Shown here piece after piece: positions 29,929 to 57,733 of a stretch of DNA of 64,000 nt. The stretch's first letter is position 1. Each line of letters starts with the position of its first letter. The notes beneath the pieces were generated by a model. That model was not told the origin of the DNA. It searched no databases and saw only the letters and a program-made list of their open reading frames with translations. The position numbers and the translations under genes are program-made. The stretch lies in NCBI GenBank assembly GCA_014685065.1, contig GCA_014685065.1_4092.1, one strand, 5' to 3'. This stretch comes from a phage.

Positions 29929-31254
29929 ATGACTACTCAAAACGATATCCTGAACGTTAAACTGACTCCAAAGAAAGCTAAAGAAGCAATGGCACTGGCT
30001 GACATGATTCAAGATAGCCTGATGATTTGGGGTAGCCCAGGTATCGGTAAGTCTGCTATCGCTCGTCAATATGCTGATGAAAATTACCCACTGCGTAAAG
30101 ATAACGTAGCTAAAATCGAGTTCATGAAACAACAAATCGAAGCTGACCCTGAAAATGCTGATCAGCTACGCCGTGAACTGGCTGCATTTGAAGCAAAACT
30201 AATCGACCAAGATACTAACTTTATCGATTTCCGTTTGTCTCAAATTGAACCAAGTGACCTTCGCGGTATCCCTGTACCAGAGAAGCTTTTCCGTAAAACT
30301 GACGGTTCTCTTCTCAAAGAATCTGAGCTTGCTGAAGCAAAAGATTATGTGGCTGAAACTGCTGTAGTATGGGCTGCACCTAAAGTACTGAAATTGTCCG
30401 AAGATTGGAAAGGTGTTATTCTGTTTGACGAAATTAACTCTGCAATGCCTATTGTTCAGGCAGCGTCTTATCAGCTAATCCTCGACCGTTGTGTTGGTGA
30501 GATGAAGCTACCTAAGACTGCACTGATTCTTGCAGCAGGTAACCGTGAAACTGATGGCGGTGTAACGTTCTCTCTTGCTACACCACTGCGTGACCGTATG
30601 ACTCACATTGAGATGATTCCTTATCATCAAGATTGGATTAACGATTATGCGATTGCAAAACGTTTGAACCCAGCAACTGTTGCGTTCATCAACAACACTG
30701 GTTCTAAGTACTTTAACACACTTAGCCCACAAGATCCTTCTCACAGCGGTGGTACTTCTCCACGTTCATGGGAAGCAGTAGCACGCTACGAAGATCTCAA
30801 GAAAAATAAGACAATTGATAAAGAAGTGTTCCGTGCAATGATTGCTGGTCGTGTTGGTGAAGGTGTTGCGACTGAATACATTGAGTACGTTGAGAACGTT
30901 GCTAAACTACCAGATACTATGTCTATTCTGTCTGGTGAAATCAAAGAAATCGACGCAACGCTGGATATTTCTGCGAACTACTTTATCACTCTGAACTTGG
31001 TTTATAAAATTATCGACCTGTTCAATGAGAAGCAAGAACAACGTCTACCAGTGGAAGAATGGGGTAAACTGTGTAACAACTTCATCACCTTCCTAGACCA
31101 TAACTTCTCTGCAACTCAAGCAGAACTGGCAGTACTGGCAATTCGTACCATCACGCTTCATAAGGTTGCGATTTCCATTAAAGATGTACCAGCGTTTAAA
31201 GATTTCATCGCTAAGTACTCTGAACTTGTACGTAAAGCACGCTCTCTTGGCTAA
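29929..31254 (+). CDS. MoxR/RavA-like AAA+ ATPase
   Basis: Walker A GSPGIGKS, Walker B ILFDEIN, AAGNRE sensor region; strong CTG/CGT/GGT codon bias. Confidence 0.7.
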   Translation: MTTQNDILNVKLTPKKAKEAMALADMIQDSLMIWGSPGIGKSAIARQYADENYPLRKDNVAKIEFMKQQIEADPENADQLRRELAAFEAKLIDQDTNFIDFRLSQIEPSDLRGIPVPEKLFRKTDGSLLKESELAEAKDYVAETAVVWAAPKVLKLSEDWKGVILFDEINSAMPIVQAASYQLILDRCVGEMKLPKTALILAAGNRETDGGVTFSLATPLRDRMTHIEMIPYHQDWINDYAIAKRLNPATVAFINNTGSKYFNTLSPQDPSHSGGTSPRSWEAVARYEDLKKNKTIDKEVFRAMIAGRVGEGVATEYIEYVENVAKLPDTMSILSGEIKEIDATLDISANYFITLNLVYKIIDLFNEKQEQRLPVEEWGKLCNNFITFLDHNFSATQAELAVLAIRTITLHKVAISIKDVPAFKDFIAKYSELVRKARSLG

Positions 31255-37380: not shown

Positions 37381-38871
37381 TTAAACTACAGAAACCCCAC
37401 TCATTGAAGGTGGAACGATTTGCTCAGCAATTAATAATAAATTAGTGACTGTAAACTTGCCACCATGTGACATTAACGTAATAGGTGTTCCATTAGTTAC
37501 TAGGTTACCATTTTCATCAACACTTAAAAATGTATTAAATGAAATAGTATCAACTGTGATTGTTGGTGTTCTAACTTGGTTAATATTATTAAATTGAGTA
37601 TTTGTAAAATTAATAGCAAAACTCATATTAGATGAACTAGTAGTCCATGTACCGTATATATTTAATTTGAAATTTAGAGATGAATTGAAATTATAAACAT
37701 TTAGCTTATTACTTGTTGTATTGAAGAAACTATCTAGTGTTCCACTAGTGGGGGTCAATGATTTAAGTATTTGAATTAAATTCTGTTCAATACCATCTGT
37801 GAATTGTATATTTAAGTTTGAATAATATAATTCTCTTTTTCTACGAACTAGGTTAGTAGTATTATTACCATTAACAAATAATCCAGAACTATCTGATGTT
37901 AATATATTACCAGAGGTATTACTTATTTTAGACGAAATAACATTACTGTCAATAGTTATACCATTTCCAGCAGTATATGAGGATGGTCCAGTCGGTACAT
38001 ATAACCCATTTACGTCAGTTGTTAAAGTATTTCCTGGTGTTGTGCTTATTTTGGTTGAAATTGTTTCTGAACTAATTGATATACCAGTACCACCAACGTA
38101 ATTTATTCTTGTATTAGGCACAAACAATCCAGTACTGTCAGTAGATAGTATATTACCAGAAGTAGAACTAATTTTAGCACTTATTATATCAGAATTAATT
38201 GAAATTCCGTTACCAGCATTATAAGTTACAGTATTGTTAGGAACAAATAAACCATTGCTAGTAGAAGATAATATATTTTCTGGCGTAGGGTCAACCTCAA
38301 CACTAATCACTTCATCACTAATTACAATCCCATTACCCGCATTGTACGTTATCGAATTATCAGGTACGAATAGACCCGTACTATCAGTTGTAAGGATATT
38401 TCCTAAAGATGTGCTTACTTTTGATGATATAATATTATTATCTATTTTAATACTGTCACTACCTGTATATGTTACTGTATTATCAGGTACATATAAACCA
38501 TCTTCGGCAATAGTAAGGATGTTATTAGGTGATGTACTTATTTTAGTTGAGATAGTATTATCACTTATTGTCACACCAGTGCCACCAGAATACACAATTG
38601 ATGTATTAGGAACATATAAACCATTAGAATCATTACTAAGAATATTTCCTTGTGTTGAACTGATTTTTGTTGATATTAAATTAGAGGTTATTGATATACC
38701 AGTACCACCTTGATAGTTAATAGTGTTATCTGGAACATATAAACCATCACTTTCATGAATTAAAATATTTTTATTTTTAGAACTAATATCAGGTACTGGA
38801 ATCTTACCTATTAGAACACCGTCATAACTGATATCACCATTTACAATAATATCTGTTCTTATATTATACAT
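37381..38871 (-). CDS. tail fibre protein with ~35-aa tandem repeats
   Basis: repeating unit GNIL..D..GL(Y/F)VP(D/N)N...Y.(A/G)G.GI.I....IS.K(I/V)S at least eight times. Confidence 0.55.
   Translation of the reverse strand: MYNIRTDIIVNGDISYDGVLIGKIPVPDISSKNKNILIHESDGLYVPDNTINYQGGTGISITSNLISTKISSTQGNILSNDSNGLYVPNTSIVYSGGTGVTISDNTISTKISTSPNNILTIAEDGLYVPDNTVTYTGSDSIKIDNNIISSKVSTSLGNILTTDSTGLFVPDNSITYNAGNGIVISDEVISVEVDPTPENILSSTSNGLFVPNNTVTYNAGNGISINSDIISAKISSTSGNILSTDSTGLFVPNTRINYVGGTGISISSETISTKISTTPGNTLTTDVNGLYVPTGPSSYTAGNGITIDSNVISSKISNTSGNILTSDSSGLFVNGNNTTNLVRRKRELYYSNLNIQFTDGIEQNLIQILKSLTPTSGTLDSFFNTTSNKLNVYNFNSSLNFKLNIYGTWTTSSSNMSFAINFTNTQFNNINQVRTPTITVDTISFNTFLSVDENGNLVTNGTPITLMSHGGKFTVTNLLLIAEQIVPPSMSGVSVV
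37880..38810 (-). repeat. tandem ~105-nt coding repeats inside fibre gene
   Basis: periodic amino-acid motif in translation. Confidence 0.5.
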
Positions 38872-49619: not shown

Positions 49620-49729
49620 AATATTTCCCTTGTATGAGTTAATGTCATATACCAATATTTATCAGTACAAAATACATTTCGTTATCATTAATAAATAAAT
49701 GAAAGTTCACTACTAAAAGGGCTTAAACA

Positions 49730-53809: not shown

Positions 53810-55299
53810 TCTGTGTCCTTATGTATGCGATAAACAGTATTAGGTTTAACTGCGTCATGTAATGGAACTTTGTTATCACTATTTACAAACTGTGTAAGTG
53901 CTAAGTCTGCACCTTCCCACGGTTTTCTTCCACCATAATCAAAAATAACCCATGAATTCTTAGTTGCATTGAATTCCCATAACGTAACTGGAGTATAATC
54001 GGTGCGATAGAAATAGTCACCATCTACTGCATCAGTTGGGAACATATTTCCTTCAGGGACTGTACCTCGTGCTGGTGGAATTTTAGGACGATAATCTTGT
54101 TGCGAATCAATATTACCATATACACAATTGGACGTGAATGGTTCATTGACATAAGTTACCTTTGGTTCCCCCCACTTGTCATCATTATACTGATAAATGT
54201 GTGGTTCTTTATAAAAAATACAAAAATCTTCCACATCTTCTGGTGGAACATCACTGGTAGTATATTCTACATCACAATTTAACCATTTTTTAGCACTTTT
54301 ATCATATTGATACAACGTATAACCTGTCACATCTGCGTCATTTTCTTTAAAGAAGAAGTCACCATCCATTGGTTTTCTGGGAAAGATGGTTCCACGCTTG
54401 ACTTCCACAGAAATCCATGTATCATTAACAAACTCTTTGAGTACTGGGTATGTTTTTTTCAAAAAATACATTCCATCGGCAGGTTCTTCTGGAAAATCAT
54501 AACCGTTAAGCATATATTTTGATAAATCTACTGTATCAGGTCGATCATCATACAAATGTTCATTTGTATAATGAATATAGGGTACTTCATCATCAGCTTG
54601 CATGATGATACGGTTCATGATATCCATTTCATTGCCATAGTTACTGTTTTCCGACGAACCATCATCGGTATTTCCATTACCATTATTAGGGTCATCTGGA
54701 TTATCAGGATAATTATTGTTACCGAGTAAATCGGAGTACTCAGGTGAGTCGGTTAGCGGTTTAACTCTAAGTTTATAAATGTGATGTTGCCACGTAACCG
54801 AGTATCCCTCAGATGTACGAAATGCATCTTGGACGACATAGAAGCGGTTTAGACCTGTATCTTTACCCAATACATCAAAATCACGTAAATTTGGTAGTTC
54901 TATCACATCCCCTGGCATGATTTTTCTACCTAAACGCTGCATCATTGTATTATAATGGATTGTGATGTCCATAGTGTTGAAATTAAAGAACAATCCTGGG
55001 ATTTTCAAGTCTGGAGTTGCTTCTTGAACTTGATAGACACAACTAAGTGTGATAGCTTCAAGGTTGTAGTTTCTGTTTGGTGTGTCACCAAAAATTAAAT
55101 CGCCAATACTTGACACAACTGATCCTGAAGATGTATAATCACCTCCATAGGATAAGTCAGTGTTGTCAGCAACTTGTTTTGGACCGACATATGCATAAAG
55201 CCACATGTCAACTCCACCAATGTTGTATTGTTCAGCAATGGCAGAATCAATGAACTTGTAATCATTGGTTCTCCCTTTTTTCCACATTCTATATGTCAT
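53806..55299 (-). CDS. hypothetical virion protein (baseplate candidate)
   Basis: ORF; ATG 55299 with GGAGA RBS preferred over TTG 55311. Confidence 0.45.
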   Translation of the reverse strand: MTYRMWKKGRTNDYKFIDSAIAEQYNIGGVDMWLYAYVGPKQVADNTDLSYGGDYTSSGSVVSSIGDLIFGDTPNRNYNLEAITLSCVYQVQEATPDLKIPGLFFNFNTMDITIHYNTMMQRLGRKIMPGDVIELPNLRDFDVLGKDTGLNRFYVVQDAFRTSEGYSVTWQHHIYKLRVKPLTDSPEYSDLLGNNNYPDNPDDPNNGNGNTDDGSSENSNYGNEMDIMNRIIMQADDEVPYIHYTNEHLYDDRPDTVDLSKYMLNGYDFPEEPADGMYFLKKTYPVLKEFVNDTWISVEVKRGTIFPRKPMDGDFFFKENDADVTGYTLYQYDKSAKKWLNCDVEYTTSDVPPEDVEDFCIFYKEPHIYQYNDDKWGEPKVTYVNEPFTSNCVYGNIDSQQDYRPKIPPARGTVPEGNMFPTDAVDGDYFYRTDYTPVTLWEFNATKNSWVIFDYGGRKPWEGADLALTQFVNSDNKVPLHDAVKPNTVYRIHKDTE

Positions 55300-55342
55300 G
55301 TTTGTCTCCAAAATAAATCGGGTATATCTTTATTTACCTTGT

Positions 55343-55370
55343 AGACAAACCGTAAGAATGTGATATAATG
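55343..55370 (+). promoter_or_regulatory. sigma70-type promoter TAGACA-N16-TGaTATAAT
   Basis: TATAAT 55365-55370 with TG extension. Confidence 0.55.
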
Positions 55371-55409
55371 TTTATTAATTAGAGTGACGTGAATCACATA
55401 GGAGAATAC

Positions 55410-57698
55410 ATGAATCTTACTCAATTGTTCAAAAAAAGCGACGAACTGGCAACATCTCTAGGTCATACATTCTTGACTATTGACCACGTAAGTGCCACAG
55501 TACTGACTATTGATAGCATCAAGAACGTATTTGAAGATATGAACATTGATGCAGACAAACTGCACAACCGCCTGATGAACTATCTTAAAAATACAACAGT
55601 TCCACATGCACCAAAAAGTGTTAAAGATGAAGACGCGAATCGCACTTCACTTCTAGTGAATCGCGTTGTACATGAGCTTTCTAAAAAATCAGTTATTGAA
55701 CAACTAAAAAGTGATGATTTTTCGATTGATGCATATTTTGTTCTATTCGAATGTCTGTCTTTCCCTAACACAGCACTAGAAGCTGCGTTGAAAGAAGAAG
55801 GTGTTAGCTGTACTGAAGCTGCACGTGCATTGCAAAAACACGTTGAGTCACTTGATAAGGGTATCAACTTACAAAGTATTAATGACGAACCGATTGGAGA
55901 TAAAAAAGTGGCCCAACAGCAGCAATCATCTAAACAAAAAGGTTTGGAAGACTATACAACGAATCTAACTGCTCTTGCAAAAGAAGGCAAACTAGATCCT
56001 ATGATTGGTCGCCAGAAAGAATTGTCTGCATTGATTGAGACTCTTGCTCGCAAAACCAAAAAGAATGCTATTCTTACTGGTGAAGCTGGTGTAGGTAAAA
56101 CACAAATCATCGACGGTCTTGCACAAGCTATTGCTGACGGCAACGTACCTGAACACCTGAAAGACGTTGAAATTCTTTCACTAAATGTTGGTGCATTGAC
56201 TGCTGGTACTAAGTATCGTGGTGAGTTTGAAGAACGCATCGACAATTTGCTAAAAGAACTAAAGAAACGTGAAAATACTATTGTTTTCATTGATGAAATT
56301 CATATTATGGTTGGGGCTGGTTCCGCAAGTAATGGTTCTATGGACATGAGCAATATGCTTAAGCCAGCACTTTCACGTGGTGAGATTCGTGTAATTGGTG
56401 CAACAACATATGATGAATATCGTAAAAATATCGAGAAAGATAGTGCATTAACTCGTCGTTTTATGAAAATTGATGTAGTTGAGCCGTCAATTGATGAAAC
56501 TCGTGCAATTGTTAATGGTTTGAAACCAACTTATGAAAAATTCCATAATGTTGAGTTCACAACTGATGCAATGGATGCTGTAATTTCTCTCAGTGATAAA
56601 TTCCTGAAGAATAAGCACTTCCCAGATAAAGCAATTGATCTAATGGACGCTGCTGCTGCAAAAGTTCGTTCACGTGACAACAATAGTAAGCTTATTACTG
56701 CCAATTTGATTCAAGAAGTTGTTGCTGGTATTGCCAATTTGGATATCAACGTGGTTGCATGTACTGAAAGTGATCGTATGCGTAATCTACCAGATGCACT
56801 ACGCTCACGTGTATACGGTCAAGAGGAAGCTATTCAAAAATTAGTTGATAACGTGATGGTAGCTCGTGCAGGACTGCGTGACAAATCTAGTGTTCAGGGT
56901 GCATTTATGTTTGTTGGACCATCTGGTACTGGTAAAACAGAAATTACCAAAGCATTAGCAGATGCAACTGGTGCGGAACTGATTCGCTTTGATATGTCAG
57001 AATTTTCTCAAGAACATACTGTTTCTAAACTAATTGGTTCACCTCCAGGTTATGTTGGTCATGATTCTGGTAACGGTTTACTGTTGGATAAAATTGAGCA
57101 GTTCCCTAATGCAGTACTGTTACTTGATGAAATTGAAAAAGCAGATCGTAAAGTACTACTAACCTTCCTACAGGTTTTGGATGAAGGTCGCCTGACTGGT
57201 TCACAAGGTAAAACTGTATATTTTAATAACGTAACTGTTATTATGACTACAAACCTTGGTGCGGCAGATTCAACGAAGCGTAGCATTGGTATGAGCGGTA
57301 GTGATACTGCACAAGACAAGGCAATTAAAGCATTCTTGCCACCAGAGTTTATTAACCGTATTGATAGTATCGTTACGTTTAAAGACCTAAGCAGTGAAGC
57401 TATTGACAGCATCATTGATAAGTTCATGGGCAGTTTGAATGAACAAGTCAAAGACCGCAATGTTAAAGTTACATTGACAAAAGCTGCACGTGAATGGCTT
57501 GCGAAAAATGGGGTAAAAGTTGGCATGGGTGCACGTCCAATGAAACGTACCATTGAACAAAACATTCGTGTACCACTAGCTAAAGAAATGTTGTGTGGTT
57601 CACTTGTGAATGGTGGTAACATTACATTTGATGTTATTGATGGTAAAATCGGTATTAAACCGAAACGTACCAAAGCTGTAGATAAAGCACTGGCATAA
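55410..57698 (+). CDS. clpA: ClpA-like two-ring AAA+ unfoldase (ClpA/B N-domain, D1, D2, no ClpB-type middle domain, IGM loop)
   Basis: two Walker A ([16 protein letters not shown]), Walker B ([15 protein letters not shown]), [22 protein letters not shown] tripeptide loop; near-colinear with E. coli ClpA from memory; AGGAG RBS. Confidence 0.85.
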
Positions 57699-57708
57699 AA
57701 AAAGAAAA

Positions 57709-57733
57709 GGAGAGCAATATGCTCTCCTTTTTT
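57709..57733. terminator. bidirectional intrinsic terminator
   Basis: GGAGAGC aatat GCTCTCC then TTTTTT, A-run upstream. Confidence 0.7.

Follow-up and report, generated by a model that had tools for sequence, protein, structure and literature searches.

The AAA+ unfoldase ClpA of E. coli has chaperone activity when alone and, together with ClpP and ClpS, makes up the ClpAPS protease. Its structures (1KSF, 6W1Z) show the N-domain, D1 and D2 arrangement, and an IGL loop marks the ClpP-docking position. Jumbo phages also encode such proteins, and in most Rak2-like phages the conservation of ClpA has been described as high (PMC6102473). Homologues at 53–76% identity to the protein described here are found in RaK2, K64-1, Munch/SE_PL, GAP32, CBB, fHe-Yen9-04, pEa_SNUABM, XbC2 and XaC1, and in Rak2-like jumbo phages ClpA co-occurs with ClpP and a ClpS-like gene while the docking tripeptide varies by genus. 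PA5oct-like Pseudomonas jumbo phages and Agrobacterium phage Atu_ph07, the latter with seven Clp-family genes, encode a ClpA-type protein at ∼41% identity and a ClpP in the same genome. In the literature we found no biochemical or genetic study of any member of this phage ClpA clade, no paper treating Asteriusvirus and ClpA together, and nothing relevant on Clp in phAPEC6 or PA5oct; the PA5oct omics paper makes no mention of Clp.

The window, the 64-kb stretch of phage DNA analysed here, is 98–99% identical in DNA to 121Q, PBECO4 and G17 and on this identity belongs to an Asteriusvirus jumbo phage, another isolate of the 121Q/PBECO4-like giant coliphage genus. Its clpA-like gene occupies positions 55410..57698 of the plus strand and encodes 762 aa followed by a TAA stop. 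The six-frame list of open reading frames opens the same frame at a GTG (55389..57698, +, 769 aa); the ATG at 55410 is the likely start, since a putative ribosome-binding site (AGGAG, 55400..55404, +) precedes it by 5 nt. An earlier note, made from the letters of the window, had described a 762-aa plus-strand frame between minus-strand virion genes, and the frame list and flanking annotation bear this out. The span given there (55343-57733) runs from promoter to terminator and is wider than the coding sequence. By tblastn the product is 99.6% identical in amino acids to 121Q gp581 ("ClpA-like"), its orthologue, and it matches PHROG 4871 ('ATP-dependent protease') with 1036 bits, residues 2–756 aligning to profile positions 11–761 of 764. 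Gp581 and the PBECO4, G17 and phAPEC6 orthologues are 98.4–98.9% identical in DNA from promoter to terminator, with the same flanks and orientation and no substantive difference. Public records of a known phage family already carry the gene, annotated as ClpA-like, and its novelty is low.

Profile matches and alignments describe a two-ring AAA+ protein near-colinear with ClpA, in agreement with the earlier note. The Pfam matches are Clp_N, AAA, AAA_lid_9, AAA_2 and ClpB_D2-small. ClpA is the best NCBIfam model (755 bits, a single full-length stretch, with the HMM alignment beginning at residue 3), and among PDB entries 1KSF, E. coli ClpA, matches best (606 bits), residues 17–741 being colinear with 20–734; because of this colinearity with a solved ClpA, the fold is taken as settled. 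Identity to E. coli ClpA is 42–44%, about the distance that separates E. coli ClpA from E. coli ClpB (42.7%). The NCBIfam equivalog cutoffs are not reached (755 versus 993 bits for TIGR02639 and 656 versus 1350 bits for NF008263), and by the NCBI criterion the phage protein is ClpA-like, yet not an equivalog. It differs from E. coli ClpA in its N-domain: approximately aa 1–177 (55410..55940, +), assigned by Pfam, the ClpA HMM and alignment to a divergent Clp_N-type domain plus linker, carry an insertion of ∼14 aa that E. coli ClpA lacks, and the Pfam Clp_N match is weak (21.7 bits, cutoff 20.7) and covers the first repeat only (aa 11–59).

All AAA+ motifs are intact and, in the alignment, near-invariant across 120 homologues. 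The D1 core motifs (56079..56462, +) comprise Walker A GEAGVGKT (56079-56102), pore-1 KYR (56211-56222), Walker B FIDEIH (56286-56303) and the arginine fingers RRF (56454-56462), and those of D2 (56916..57542, +) comprise Walker A GPSGTGKT (56916-56939), pore-1 GYVG (57048-57059), Walker B LLLDEIE (57117-57137), the arginine finger FINRID (57348-57365) and sensor-2 GARPM (57528-57542). GARPM is kept in every one of the 120 homologues and LLLDEIEKA in 116; the alignment (121 sequences) was made by MAFFT with fast settings, loop segments being rechecked alignment-free.

The ClpB/Hsp104 and ClpV disaggregases have the D1 and D2 cores in common with the phage protein (634 and 549 bits, respectively), yet their models match it in two separate stretches, owing to its lack of an M-domain. 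This coiled-coil domain is missing between D1 and D2 when the phage protein is aligned with both ClpA and ClpB of E. coli, as it is in ClpA itself, and the claim that no ClpB-type insert is present therefore stands. In a neighbour-joining tree of 720 columns, which sampled one ClpB as the outgroup and included neither ClpC nor ClpV, the phage sequences fall into one monophyletic group, whose sister is cellular ClpA. NCBIfam scores, motifs, the docking-type loop and the tree all point to a ClpA-type rather than a ClpB/ClpV protein. Loss of the docking loop, loss of Walker residues and a phylogeny with ClpB or ClpV had been named as observations that would speak against this assignment; when examined, none was found for this gene. 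By these comparisons it is a real, intact gene for a ClpA-type unfoldase.

Minus-strand virion genes flank clpA on both sides. The earlier note had the gene running against the grain of a tail-fibre cluster; the opposite strand is correct, but the cluster is one of tail-completion and baseplate genes, with T4 gp15-like and T4 gp6-like members as well as a giant protein of the virion, 3,323 aa long in 121Q, and not strictly a tail-fibre cluster. Nor does the gene appear to have been inserted, as had been supposed: CBB (Mimasvirus), the one other genus checked, keeps the same gene order and orientation at 62% protein identity, and both GC (38.7%) and GC3 (0.26) match the neighbouring genes. Judged from gene order and composition, the position is one of ancient conserved synteny, not of recent insertion. 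Recent capture from the host was rejected on the same GC content, on the synteny across genera and on the 42–44% identity to E. coli ClpA. A decaying or non-functional passenger gene of host origin might be suspected from the score below the NCBIfam ClpA cutoff and from the divergent N-domain. However, this is extremely improbable: the catalytic motifs are all intact and conserved at the frequencies given above, the clade numbers ∼114 representatives at 53–93% identity, many of them on contigs of 330–378 kb, and the composition is fully phage-adapted. The conservation of the clade effectively refutes the passenger reading.

At the ClpP-docking position of E. coli ClpA the phage protein has the tripeptide IGM (aa 626–628; 57285..57293, +), as first reported from the letters; alignments to 1KSF and to MG1655 ClpA, both reading KSIGL, set it against I617-G618-L619. 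The loop has the same length in the two proteins and a hydrophobic-Gly-hydrophobic tip (IGL-I-H in E. coli, IGM-S-G in the phage), although methionine is not among the third residues of the canonical [ILV]-G-[FL]. ClpB, in contrast, reads RFGELD at this position and is without the docking tripeptide. Within the phage clade the tip is hydrophobic-small-hydrophobic in most of 73 distinct loop variants, the tripeptides including IGM, MGM, IGV, LGM, VGM, VGF, IGA, IGG, MSM and MNM, among others. Since the tripeptide is variable, and degenerate in some lineages (IGG, IGA, MNM, MSM), some members of the clade may dock only weakly or may have lost docking.

The earlier note saw neither clpP nor clpS adjacent to clpA in the window, and the 121Q annotation of the matching stretch agrees. 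The description of the gene as stand-alone is not supported at the scale of the genome: the closest relatives encode their own ClpP (gp464 in 121Q) and a ClpS-like adaptor (gp48), both outside the window. In 121Q the clpS-like gene, clpP and clpA lie at 34, 214 and 298 kb, so that ClpP is 84 kb and the ClpS-like gene 264 kb from clpA, whereas clpS and clpA adjoin in E. coli; in PA5oct-like phages ClpA and ClpP are only ∼13 kb apart. For the source genome we infer ClpP and the ClpS-like protein from the closest relatives, to which the clpA stretch is 98–99% identical in DNA; gp464 is 100% identical in PBECO4 and SD-6_S16, and gp48 in SD-15_S21 and PBECO4.

Its profile scores and residues identify gp464 as a genuine ClpP. 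It matches Pfam CLP_protease with 141 bits over its full length, with the Ser-His-Asp triad and the N-terminal loop intact, scores 152 bits against the NCBIfam ClpP model versus 51 bits for the ClpP-related head-maturation model, and aligns to solved ClpPs at ∼130 bits, N-terminal axial-loop region included. The triad of the phage ClpP is kept in seven phage genera. The RefSeq label of gp464, "head maturation protease", traces to the broad PHROG 94, and because 121Q has a separate Peptidase_S77 (T4-type) prohead protease in its head module (gp601), gp464 would not be needed for head maturation. As a partner of ClpA, 121Q gp473 ("ClpP-like") was rejected: its 16.7 bits fall short of the Pfam cutoff, its N-terminus resembles a signal peptide, and the catalytic Asp is left unaligned. 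The "HslV-like" gp475 reaches only 19 bits, and HslU is absent from the genome annotation.

The ClpS-like protein gp48 matches Pfam ClpS with 24.7 bits (cutoff 23), as do five of five gp48 orthologues (best E-value 7e-11), and hhalign pairs it with E. coli ClpS at 95.5% probability. At the N-degron pocket of E. coli ClpS, which we take to be N34, D35, T38, M40 and H66, gp48 keeps D35 and T38 and carries N34D, M40A and H66N, retaining the polar character; its N-terminal 70 aa are conserved rather than a short disordered extension. ClpA and ClpP at no less than 60% identity are found in 71 and 70 records and the ClpS-like protein in 72, largely from the same Rak2-like genera. No match of the gp48 type was found in PA5oct-like phages or Atu_ph07. 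Since the relatives encode ClpP and a ClpS-like protein, and these are co-distributed, a phage-encoded partner is at least as likely as host ClpP.

This bears on the suggestion that the phage may hijack host ClpP, in which phage ClpA would dock via IGM on E. coli ClpP and redirect host proteolysis, the phage ClpP-like protein having some other role. IGM differs only conservatively from IGL, with which it aligns, the predicted sigma-70-type promoter described below would permit expression while host ClpP is abundant, and the RefSeq label of gp464, together with one ClpP peptide detected in CBB virions, could be taken to place the phage ClpP elsewhere. However, the lineage keeps a full-length, triad-intact protein that scores as ClpP in addition to the S77 prohead protease, and a conserved host pocket predicts a conserved tripeptide, whereas the tripeptide is seen to vary widely across phages whose enterobacterial hosts are closely related. 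Relative to E. coli, the docking pocket of the phage ClpP (residue list from bioRxiv 10.1101/820209) is identical at Y62 and M92 alone and has the non-conservative changes Y60T, F82S, L114G and R192P. The varying tripeptide and the differing pocket fit a phage-internal ClpA–ClpP pairing; for covariation between the two, only seven genus-level pairs were compared, too few for any signal. The host-ClpP proposal is compatible with a phage-encoded Clp protease, but in view of the ClpA, ClpP and ClpS-like proteins in ∼70 records each it calls for revision, and we consider it quite unlikely.

Both the promoter and the bidirectional terminator attributed to the gene were found as predicted elements. 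The putative sigma-70-type promoter (55342..55369, +) matches the consensus at 11 of 12 positions, with TG before the −10, and consists of a TAGACA −35 (55342-55347), a 16-nt spacer and an extended −10, TGaTATAAT (55361-55369). It stays a prediction because such sites are not enriched in the whole stretch (11 found, 11.3 expected); CBB has an extended −10 (TGcTATAAT) at the equivalent place upstream of its orthologue. The predicted intrinsic terminator is a hairpin, GGAGAGCA-ata-TGCTCTCC (57705..57731), flanked on both sides by A-runs and T-runs and acting in both directions, in common for clpA and the convergent giant virion-protein gene; the G17 annotation has a terminator at the matching place 3′ of clpA, and CBB has a hairpin of different sequence at the equivalent position. 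Together these predicted elements would make clpA a transcription unit of its own, under a promoter of host-RNAP type, inside a late virion-gene cluster. The T4-type late promoter TATAAATA is found once in the 64 kb, where 10 copies are expected, and ATAAATA, expected 37 times, is found 10 times, neither of them upstream of clpA; being rare in the window and absent there, the late motif cannot assign clpA to the late class. The timing of clpA is read from the promoter type.

The neighbourhood lends itself to another explanation, a ClpP-independent chaperone or unfoldase for virion assembly that would remodel or hold very large tail and baseplate proteins, for instance the giant one encoded next to clpA. 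The place in the tail-completion/baseplate module is kept from Asteriusvirus to Mimasvirus CBB, and the chaperone activity of E. coli ClpA alone would suit such a role. Iyer et al. 2021 (PMC7824862) put forward two possible roles for ClpA or ClpX in jumbo phages, the translocation of unfolded proteins or help with virion assembly. However, a predicted promoter and terminator of its own set clpA apart in transcription from the late genes around it, the PA5oct-like homologue adjoins a clamp loader and PhoH rather than tail genes, and the docking-type loop and the co-distribution with ClpP and the ClpS-like protein are left unexplained. The CBB orthologue is missing from the virion mass-spectrometry list, in which both its neighbours appear; this counts against a structural role, while a chaperone in assembly would be compatible with it. 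The earlier idea of virion protein handling finds its support in gene position; overall, an assembly chaperone strikes us as unlikely.

The reading we favour, with slightly more confidence than doubt, is that the clpA product is the unfoldase component, a hexamer with two AAA+ rings, of a Clp protease encoded by the phage. The divergent N-domain, probably together with the phage ClpS-like adaptor (the gp48 orthologue), would select substrates, and the IGM-bearing helix-loop-helix would dock the ClpA hexamer onto a tetradecamer of ClpP, most likely that encoded by the phage (the gp464 orthologue), whose pocket is unlike that of the host. The unfoldase would probably be cytoplasmic during infection, serving proteostasis or selective degradation, and not part of the virion. 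The physical ClpA–ClpP–ClpS pairing, the expression timing and the substrates are what we infer from sequence. More tentatively, and with doubt outweighing belief, the Rak2-like ClpA–ClpP–ClpS set may be a self-contained, host-orthogonal machine, in which a Met-rich, rapidly varying tripeptide and a remodelled pocket in ClpP, which also bears an extension at its C-terminus specific to the phages, would have co-evolved away from host ClpAP. If so, there would be no cross-talk with host partners, and the machine would degrade proteins chosen by the phage, for example host defence proteins or N-degron-bearing targets delivered via the altered-pocket ClpS-like adaptor; it would also offer a natural ClpAP pair orthogonal to that of the host, useful for the study of docking specificity.

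The main correction is to consider clpA alongside the clpP and clpS-like genes of the phage, instead of treating it as a solitary unfoldase that depends on host ClpP. Among isolates of these 350-kb coliphages, several have O157:H7 or another pathogenic E. coli as their host; phages of this kind are often discussed as biocontrol agents. Approximately 3.5 kb of the phage genome is spent on a conserved set of unfoldase, peptidase and adaptor; should the three work together as a protease specific to the phage, targeted proteolysis would be a route to host takeover or counter-defence.

The clpA gene is carried by an ORF at 55389-57698 (+), which in the six-frame list is a long plus-strand ORF amid minus-strand ORFs. 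Its first in-frame ATG, at 55410 and 3' of an AGGAG (55400-55404, +), is also the start annotated in phage G17 and yields the 762 aa given in the earlier note. Pfam matches comprise Clp_N (weak), AAA, AAA_lid_9, AAA_2 and ClpB_D2-small. The top NCBIfam model is ClpA (TIGR02639, 755 bits, below the equivalog cutoff of 993), matched in one stretch (residues 3-740 vs 5-732 of 734), whereas the ClpB (634 bits) and ClpV (549 bits) models are each matched in two. Among solved structures E. coli ClpA scores highest (606 bits), and the two proteins align colinearly (17-741 vs 20-734). In a three-way alignment with MG1655 ClpA (44% identity) and ClpB (40%), an M-domain is absent, the D2 Walker B is intact and IGM (aa 626-628) lies opposite I617-G618-L619 of E. 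coli ClpA. The remaining motifs are likewise intact, both in D1 (Walker A GEAGVGKT, Walker B FIDEIH, pore loop KYR, arginine fingers RRF) and in D2 (Walker A GPSGTGKT, pore loop GYVG, arginine finger NRID, sensor-2 GARPM); that the gene is a decaying passenger is highly improbable. In a neighbour-joining tree the phage clade is monophyletic and sister to cellular ClpA, with ClpB outside. Profiles, structure match, motifs and tree thus bear out the ClpA-like identity proposed in the earlier note, together with its IGM at the IGL position and its lack of a ClpB-type coiled-coil insert; neither the docking loop nor a Walker motif is lost, and in the tree, where one ClpB represents the disaggregases, the protein does not group with it.

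The feature is real, already known and annotated. Over a 2.45-kb stretch bearing clpA, identity to Asteriusvirus jumbo phages (SD-15_S21, PBECO4, 121Q, G17, phAPEC6, slurp01 and others) is 98.4-98.9%, and PHROG 4871 spans the full-length protein (1036 bits). By tblastn, 71 phage records match at ≥60% identity, all Rak2-like genera included, and PA5oct-like Pseudomonas jumbo phages carry a homologue at about 41% that adjoins clamp loader and PhoH genes. In a large protein database, ∼114 cluster representatives share 53-93% identity with the protein, and many of them lie on 330-378 kb contigs; after these, identity falls sharply to ≤45%. The family is in the literature, including Attai et al., and phage ClpA, ClpX, ClpP and ClpS have been listed with suggested roles in translocation or virion assembly (Iyer et al. 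2021, PMC7824862); our literature search for an experimental study of the phage clpA family found none.

From MutT (-), the local genes run through T4 gp15-like (-), structural (-), ClpA (+) and giant virion protein (-) to gp6-like wedge (-); this order, with clpA on the plus strand between minus-strand virion genes, is shared by G17, 121Q and the more distant Rak2-like Pectobacterium phage CBB. Recent insertion, as the wording of the earlier note implied, is unsupported, because GC (38.7%) and GC3 (0.26) are close to those of the neighbouring genes and far from the E. coli GC of roughly 51%. This setting brings to mind a chaperone that works without ClpP in assembling the giant tail or baseplate proteins, which we consider unlikely. 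In CBB virion mass spectrometry the neighbours CBB_233, 234 and 236 were detected but ClpA (CBB_235) was not, and ClpP (CBB_104) was represented by a single peptide (PMC5259590). A 441-aa protein elsewhere in the virion-gene region (29929-31254, +), orthologous to 121Q gp563 (annotated "ATPase"), matches AAA only at the borderline (21.3 bits) and may be a second AAA-type ATPase there.

In line with the promoter and bidirectional terminator of its own that the earlier note had described, clpA has a predicted sigma-70-type promoter, TAGACA-16-TATAAT with a TG extension (55342-55369, +; 11/12 positions), and a hairpin at 57705-57731, flanked by A-runs and T-runs and predicted to be able to terminate both convergent genes. 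The promoter is still a prediction, since sigma-70-like matches are not enriched in the stretch (11 observed vs 11.3 expected). The CBB orthologue (62% protein identity) is likewise preceded by an extended -10 (TGcTATAAT), and a hairpin again lies at the same position, so that an autonomous transcription unit appears conserved; the hairpin sequences and -35 regions differ, and the promoter likeness is confined to the extended -10. The promoter type suggests early or middle transcription by the host RNA polymerase holoenzyme. In CBB, RpoD-like -10 promoters precede presumed early and DNA-synthesis genes and ATAAATA precedes structural genes. In the window this T4 late-promoter motif is far rarer than expected, both as TATAAATA (1 observed vs 10 expected) and as ATAAATA (10 vs 37); two of the few ATAAATA copies, at 49656-49662 (-) and 49691-49697 (+), face outward from the gap that separates two divergently oriented structural genes, an arrangement consistent with the late-promoter motif proposed for CBB. 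Within the minus-strand orthologue of 121Q gp580 (structural), a perfect 12/12 consensus TTGACA-18-TATAAT (55110-55139, +) is followed about 100 nt 3' by a terminator-like hairpin (55243-55272, +), which could yield a short RNA antisense to the 5' part of the gp580 orthologue or be due to chance.

The unfoldase does not stand alone at the genome level. The whole 121Q record was read, the window corresponding to approximately 243-307 kb by coordinate offsets, and both clpP and a clpS-like gene were found in this relative, as was gp601, all outside the stretch matching the window. The product of gp464 (231 aa; L006:14364-15059) is, by its profile matches and motifs, a genuine ClpP: it matches Pfam CLP_protease over its full length (141 bits), scores 152 bits for NCBIfam ClpP vs 51 for "head maturation protease, ClpP-related", matches solved ClpPs at about 130 bits with the N-terminal axial-loop segment covered, and retains an intact catalytic triad, with Ser in AASMG, His in MCHQ and Asp in DRD. 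Its RefSeq name, "head maturation protease", was probably carried over from PHROG 94, a broad family, because a separate T4-type prohead protease, gp601 (Peptidase_S77, 74.6 bits), lies in the head module alongside the genes for portal, scaffold and major capsid protein. All seven phage ClpPs (gp464 and L014-L019) end in a conserved extension of about 25 aa (…GIILGxRNExGxxxVKRRGGVEEWV), absent from E. coli ClpP, which directly follows a strand forming part of the unfoldase-docking pocket. Two other 121Q proteins, gp473 (L006:18420-19028; a very divergent second ClpP fold with a signal-peptide-like N-terminus, PHROG 26024) and the adjacent gp475 (L006:19356-19952; a faint HslV match of only 19 bits), do not look like ClpA partners.

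The adaptor candidate, gp48 (181 aa; L002:34461-35006), passes the Pfam ClpS threshold (24.7 vs 23). All five orthologues, from five genera, match ClpS (best E-value 7e-11), and their profile matches E. coli ClpS at 95.5% probability. In gp48 and its orthologues (L021-L024) the ClpS core is preceded by a conserved N-terminal region of ∼70 aa (KASYKDSVYYIAG..DIT.YV) and followed by a ∼40-aa C-terminal tail (…LIRRDYPxD); in canonical ClpS the extension is instead short, disordered and of low conservation. The ClpP family is present in 70 phage records at ≥60% identity and the ClpS-like family in 72, every one from a Rak2-like genus, in agreement with the 71 for ClpA. Among the window's nearest relatives, copies 100% identical to those of 121Q occur in SD-6_S16 and PBECO4 for ClpP, and in these and SD-15_S21 for the ClpS-like protein. 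The gp48 gene is flanked by an IF3 homologue and a KTSC-domain protein. Within the window lie genes for a ribosome-associated factor of the HPF/RaiA type (Ribosomal_S30AE, 37 bits; 10738-11070, +) and a CCA-adding/poly(A)-polymerase-family nucleotidyltransferase (12670-13782, +), which with the IF3 homologue of relatives give the lineage several translation-related genes. It also holds, between the gp569 and gp570 orthologues, a 496-aa ORF (37381-38871, -) whose C-terminal part matches the Sf6-type tail-needle-knob domain (PF16532, 98 bits); 121Q has no gene there, which explains a coordinate shift of about 1.5 kb, and the product is probably an extra receptor-binding tail protein differing between isolates.

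Between MTTNLG and PEFxNR, the loop of the phage clade is as long as in ClpA but varies at its tip (IGM, LGL, IGV, IGA, IGG, MNM, MSM, LGM, MGM, VGF, IGF and others; 73 distinct segments); the tips found in cellular ClpA relatives of this set are IGL, IGF or MGF. In E. coli ClpP, the pocket for I617-I620 comprises A52, L48, F49, F82, L23, Y60, Y62, I90, M92, F112, L114 and L189, with polar contacts from R192 and E26 (bioRxiv 10.1101/820209). Of these, gp464 keeps only Y62 and M92 as identical residues, with conservative changes L23M, L48V, F49W, I90V, F112L and L189I and non-conservative changes A52S, Y60T, F82S, L114G and R192P. With seven genus pairs, the sample is too small for any loop/pocket covariation to be shown. 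Because the tripeptide varies among phages of closely related hosts and the phage pocket is remodelled, we infer that a phage-internal ClpA-ClpP pairing is a better fit than docking to host ClpP, which is conserved. Docking to host ClpP, though compatible with the phage-internal pairing, seems quite unlikely. The reading of a lone unfoldase dependent on host ClpP, towards which the earlier note pointed, loses weight because the lineage has ClpP and ClpS-like genes of its own.

On balance, we lean towards a Clp protease encoded by the phage, with ClpA as its unfoldase. The N-domain of ClpA together with the ClpS-like adaptor would choose substrates; the KYR and GYVG loops would thread them, and the IGM loop would serve for their delivery into phage ClpP. 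A mixture of this reading with its rivals, or something different, retains a share of the probability. The hypothetical orthogonal phage ClpAPS machine is the sole part of these observations that could become notable.
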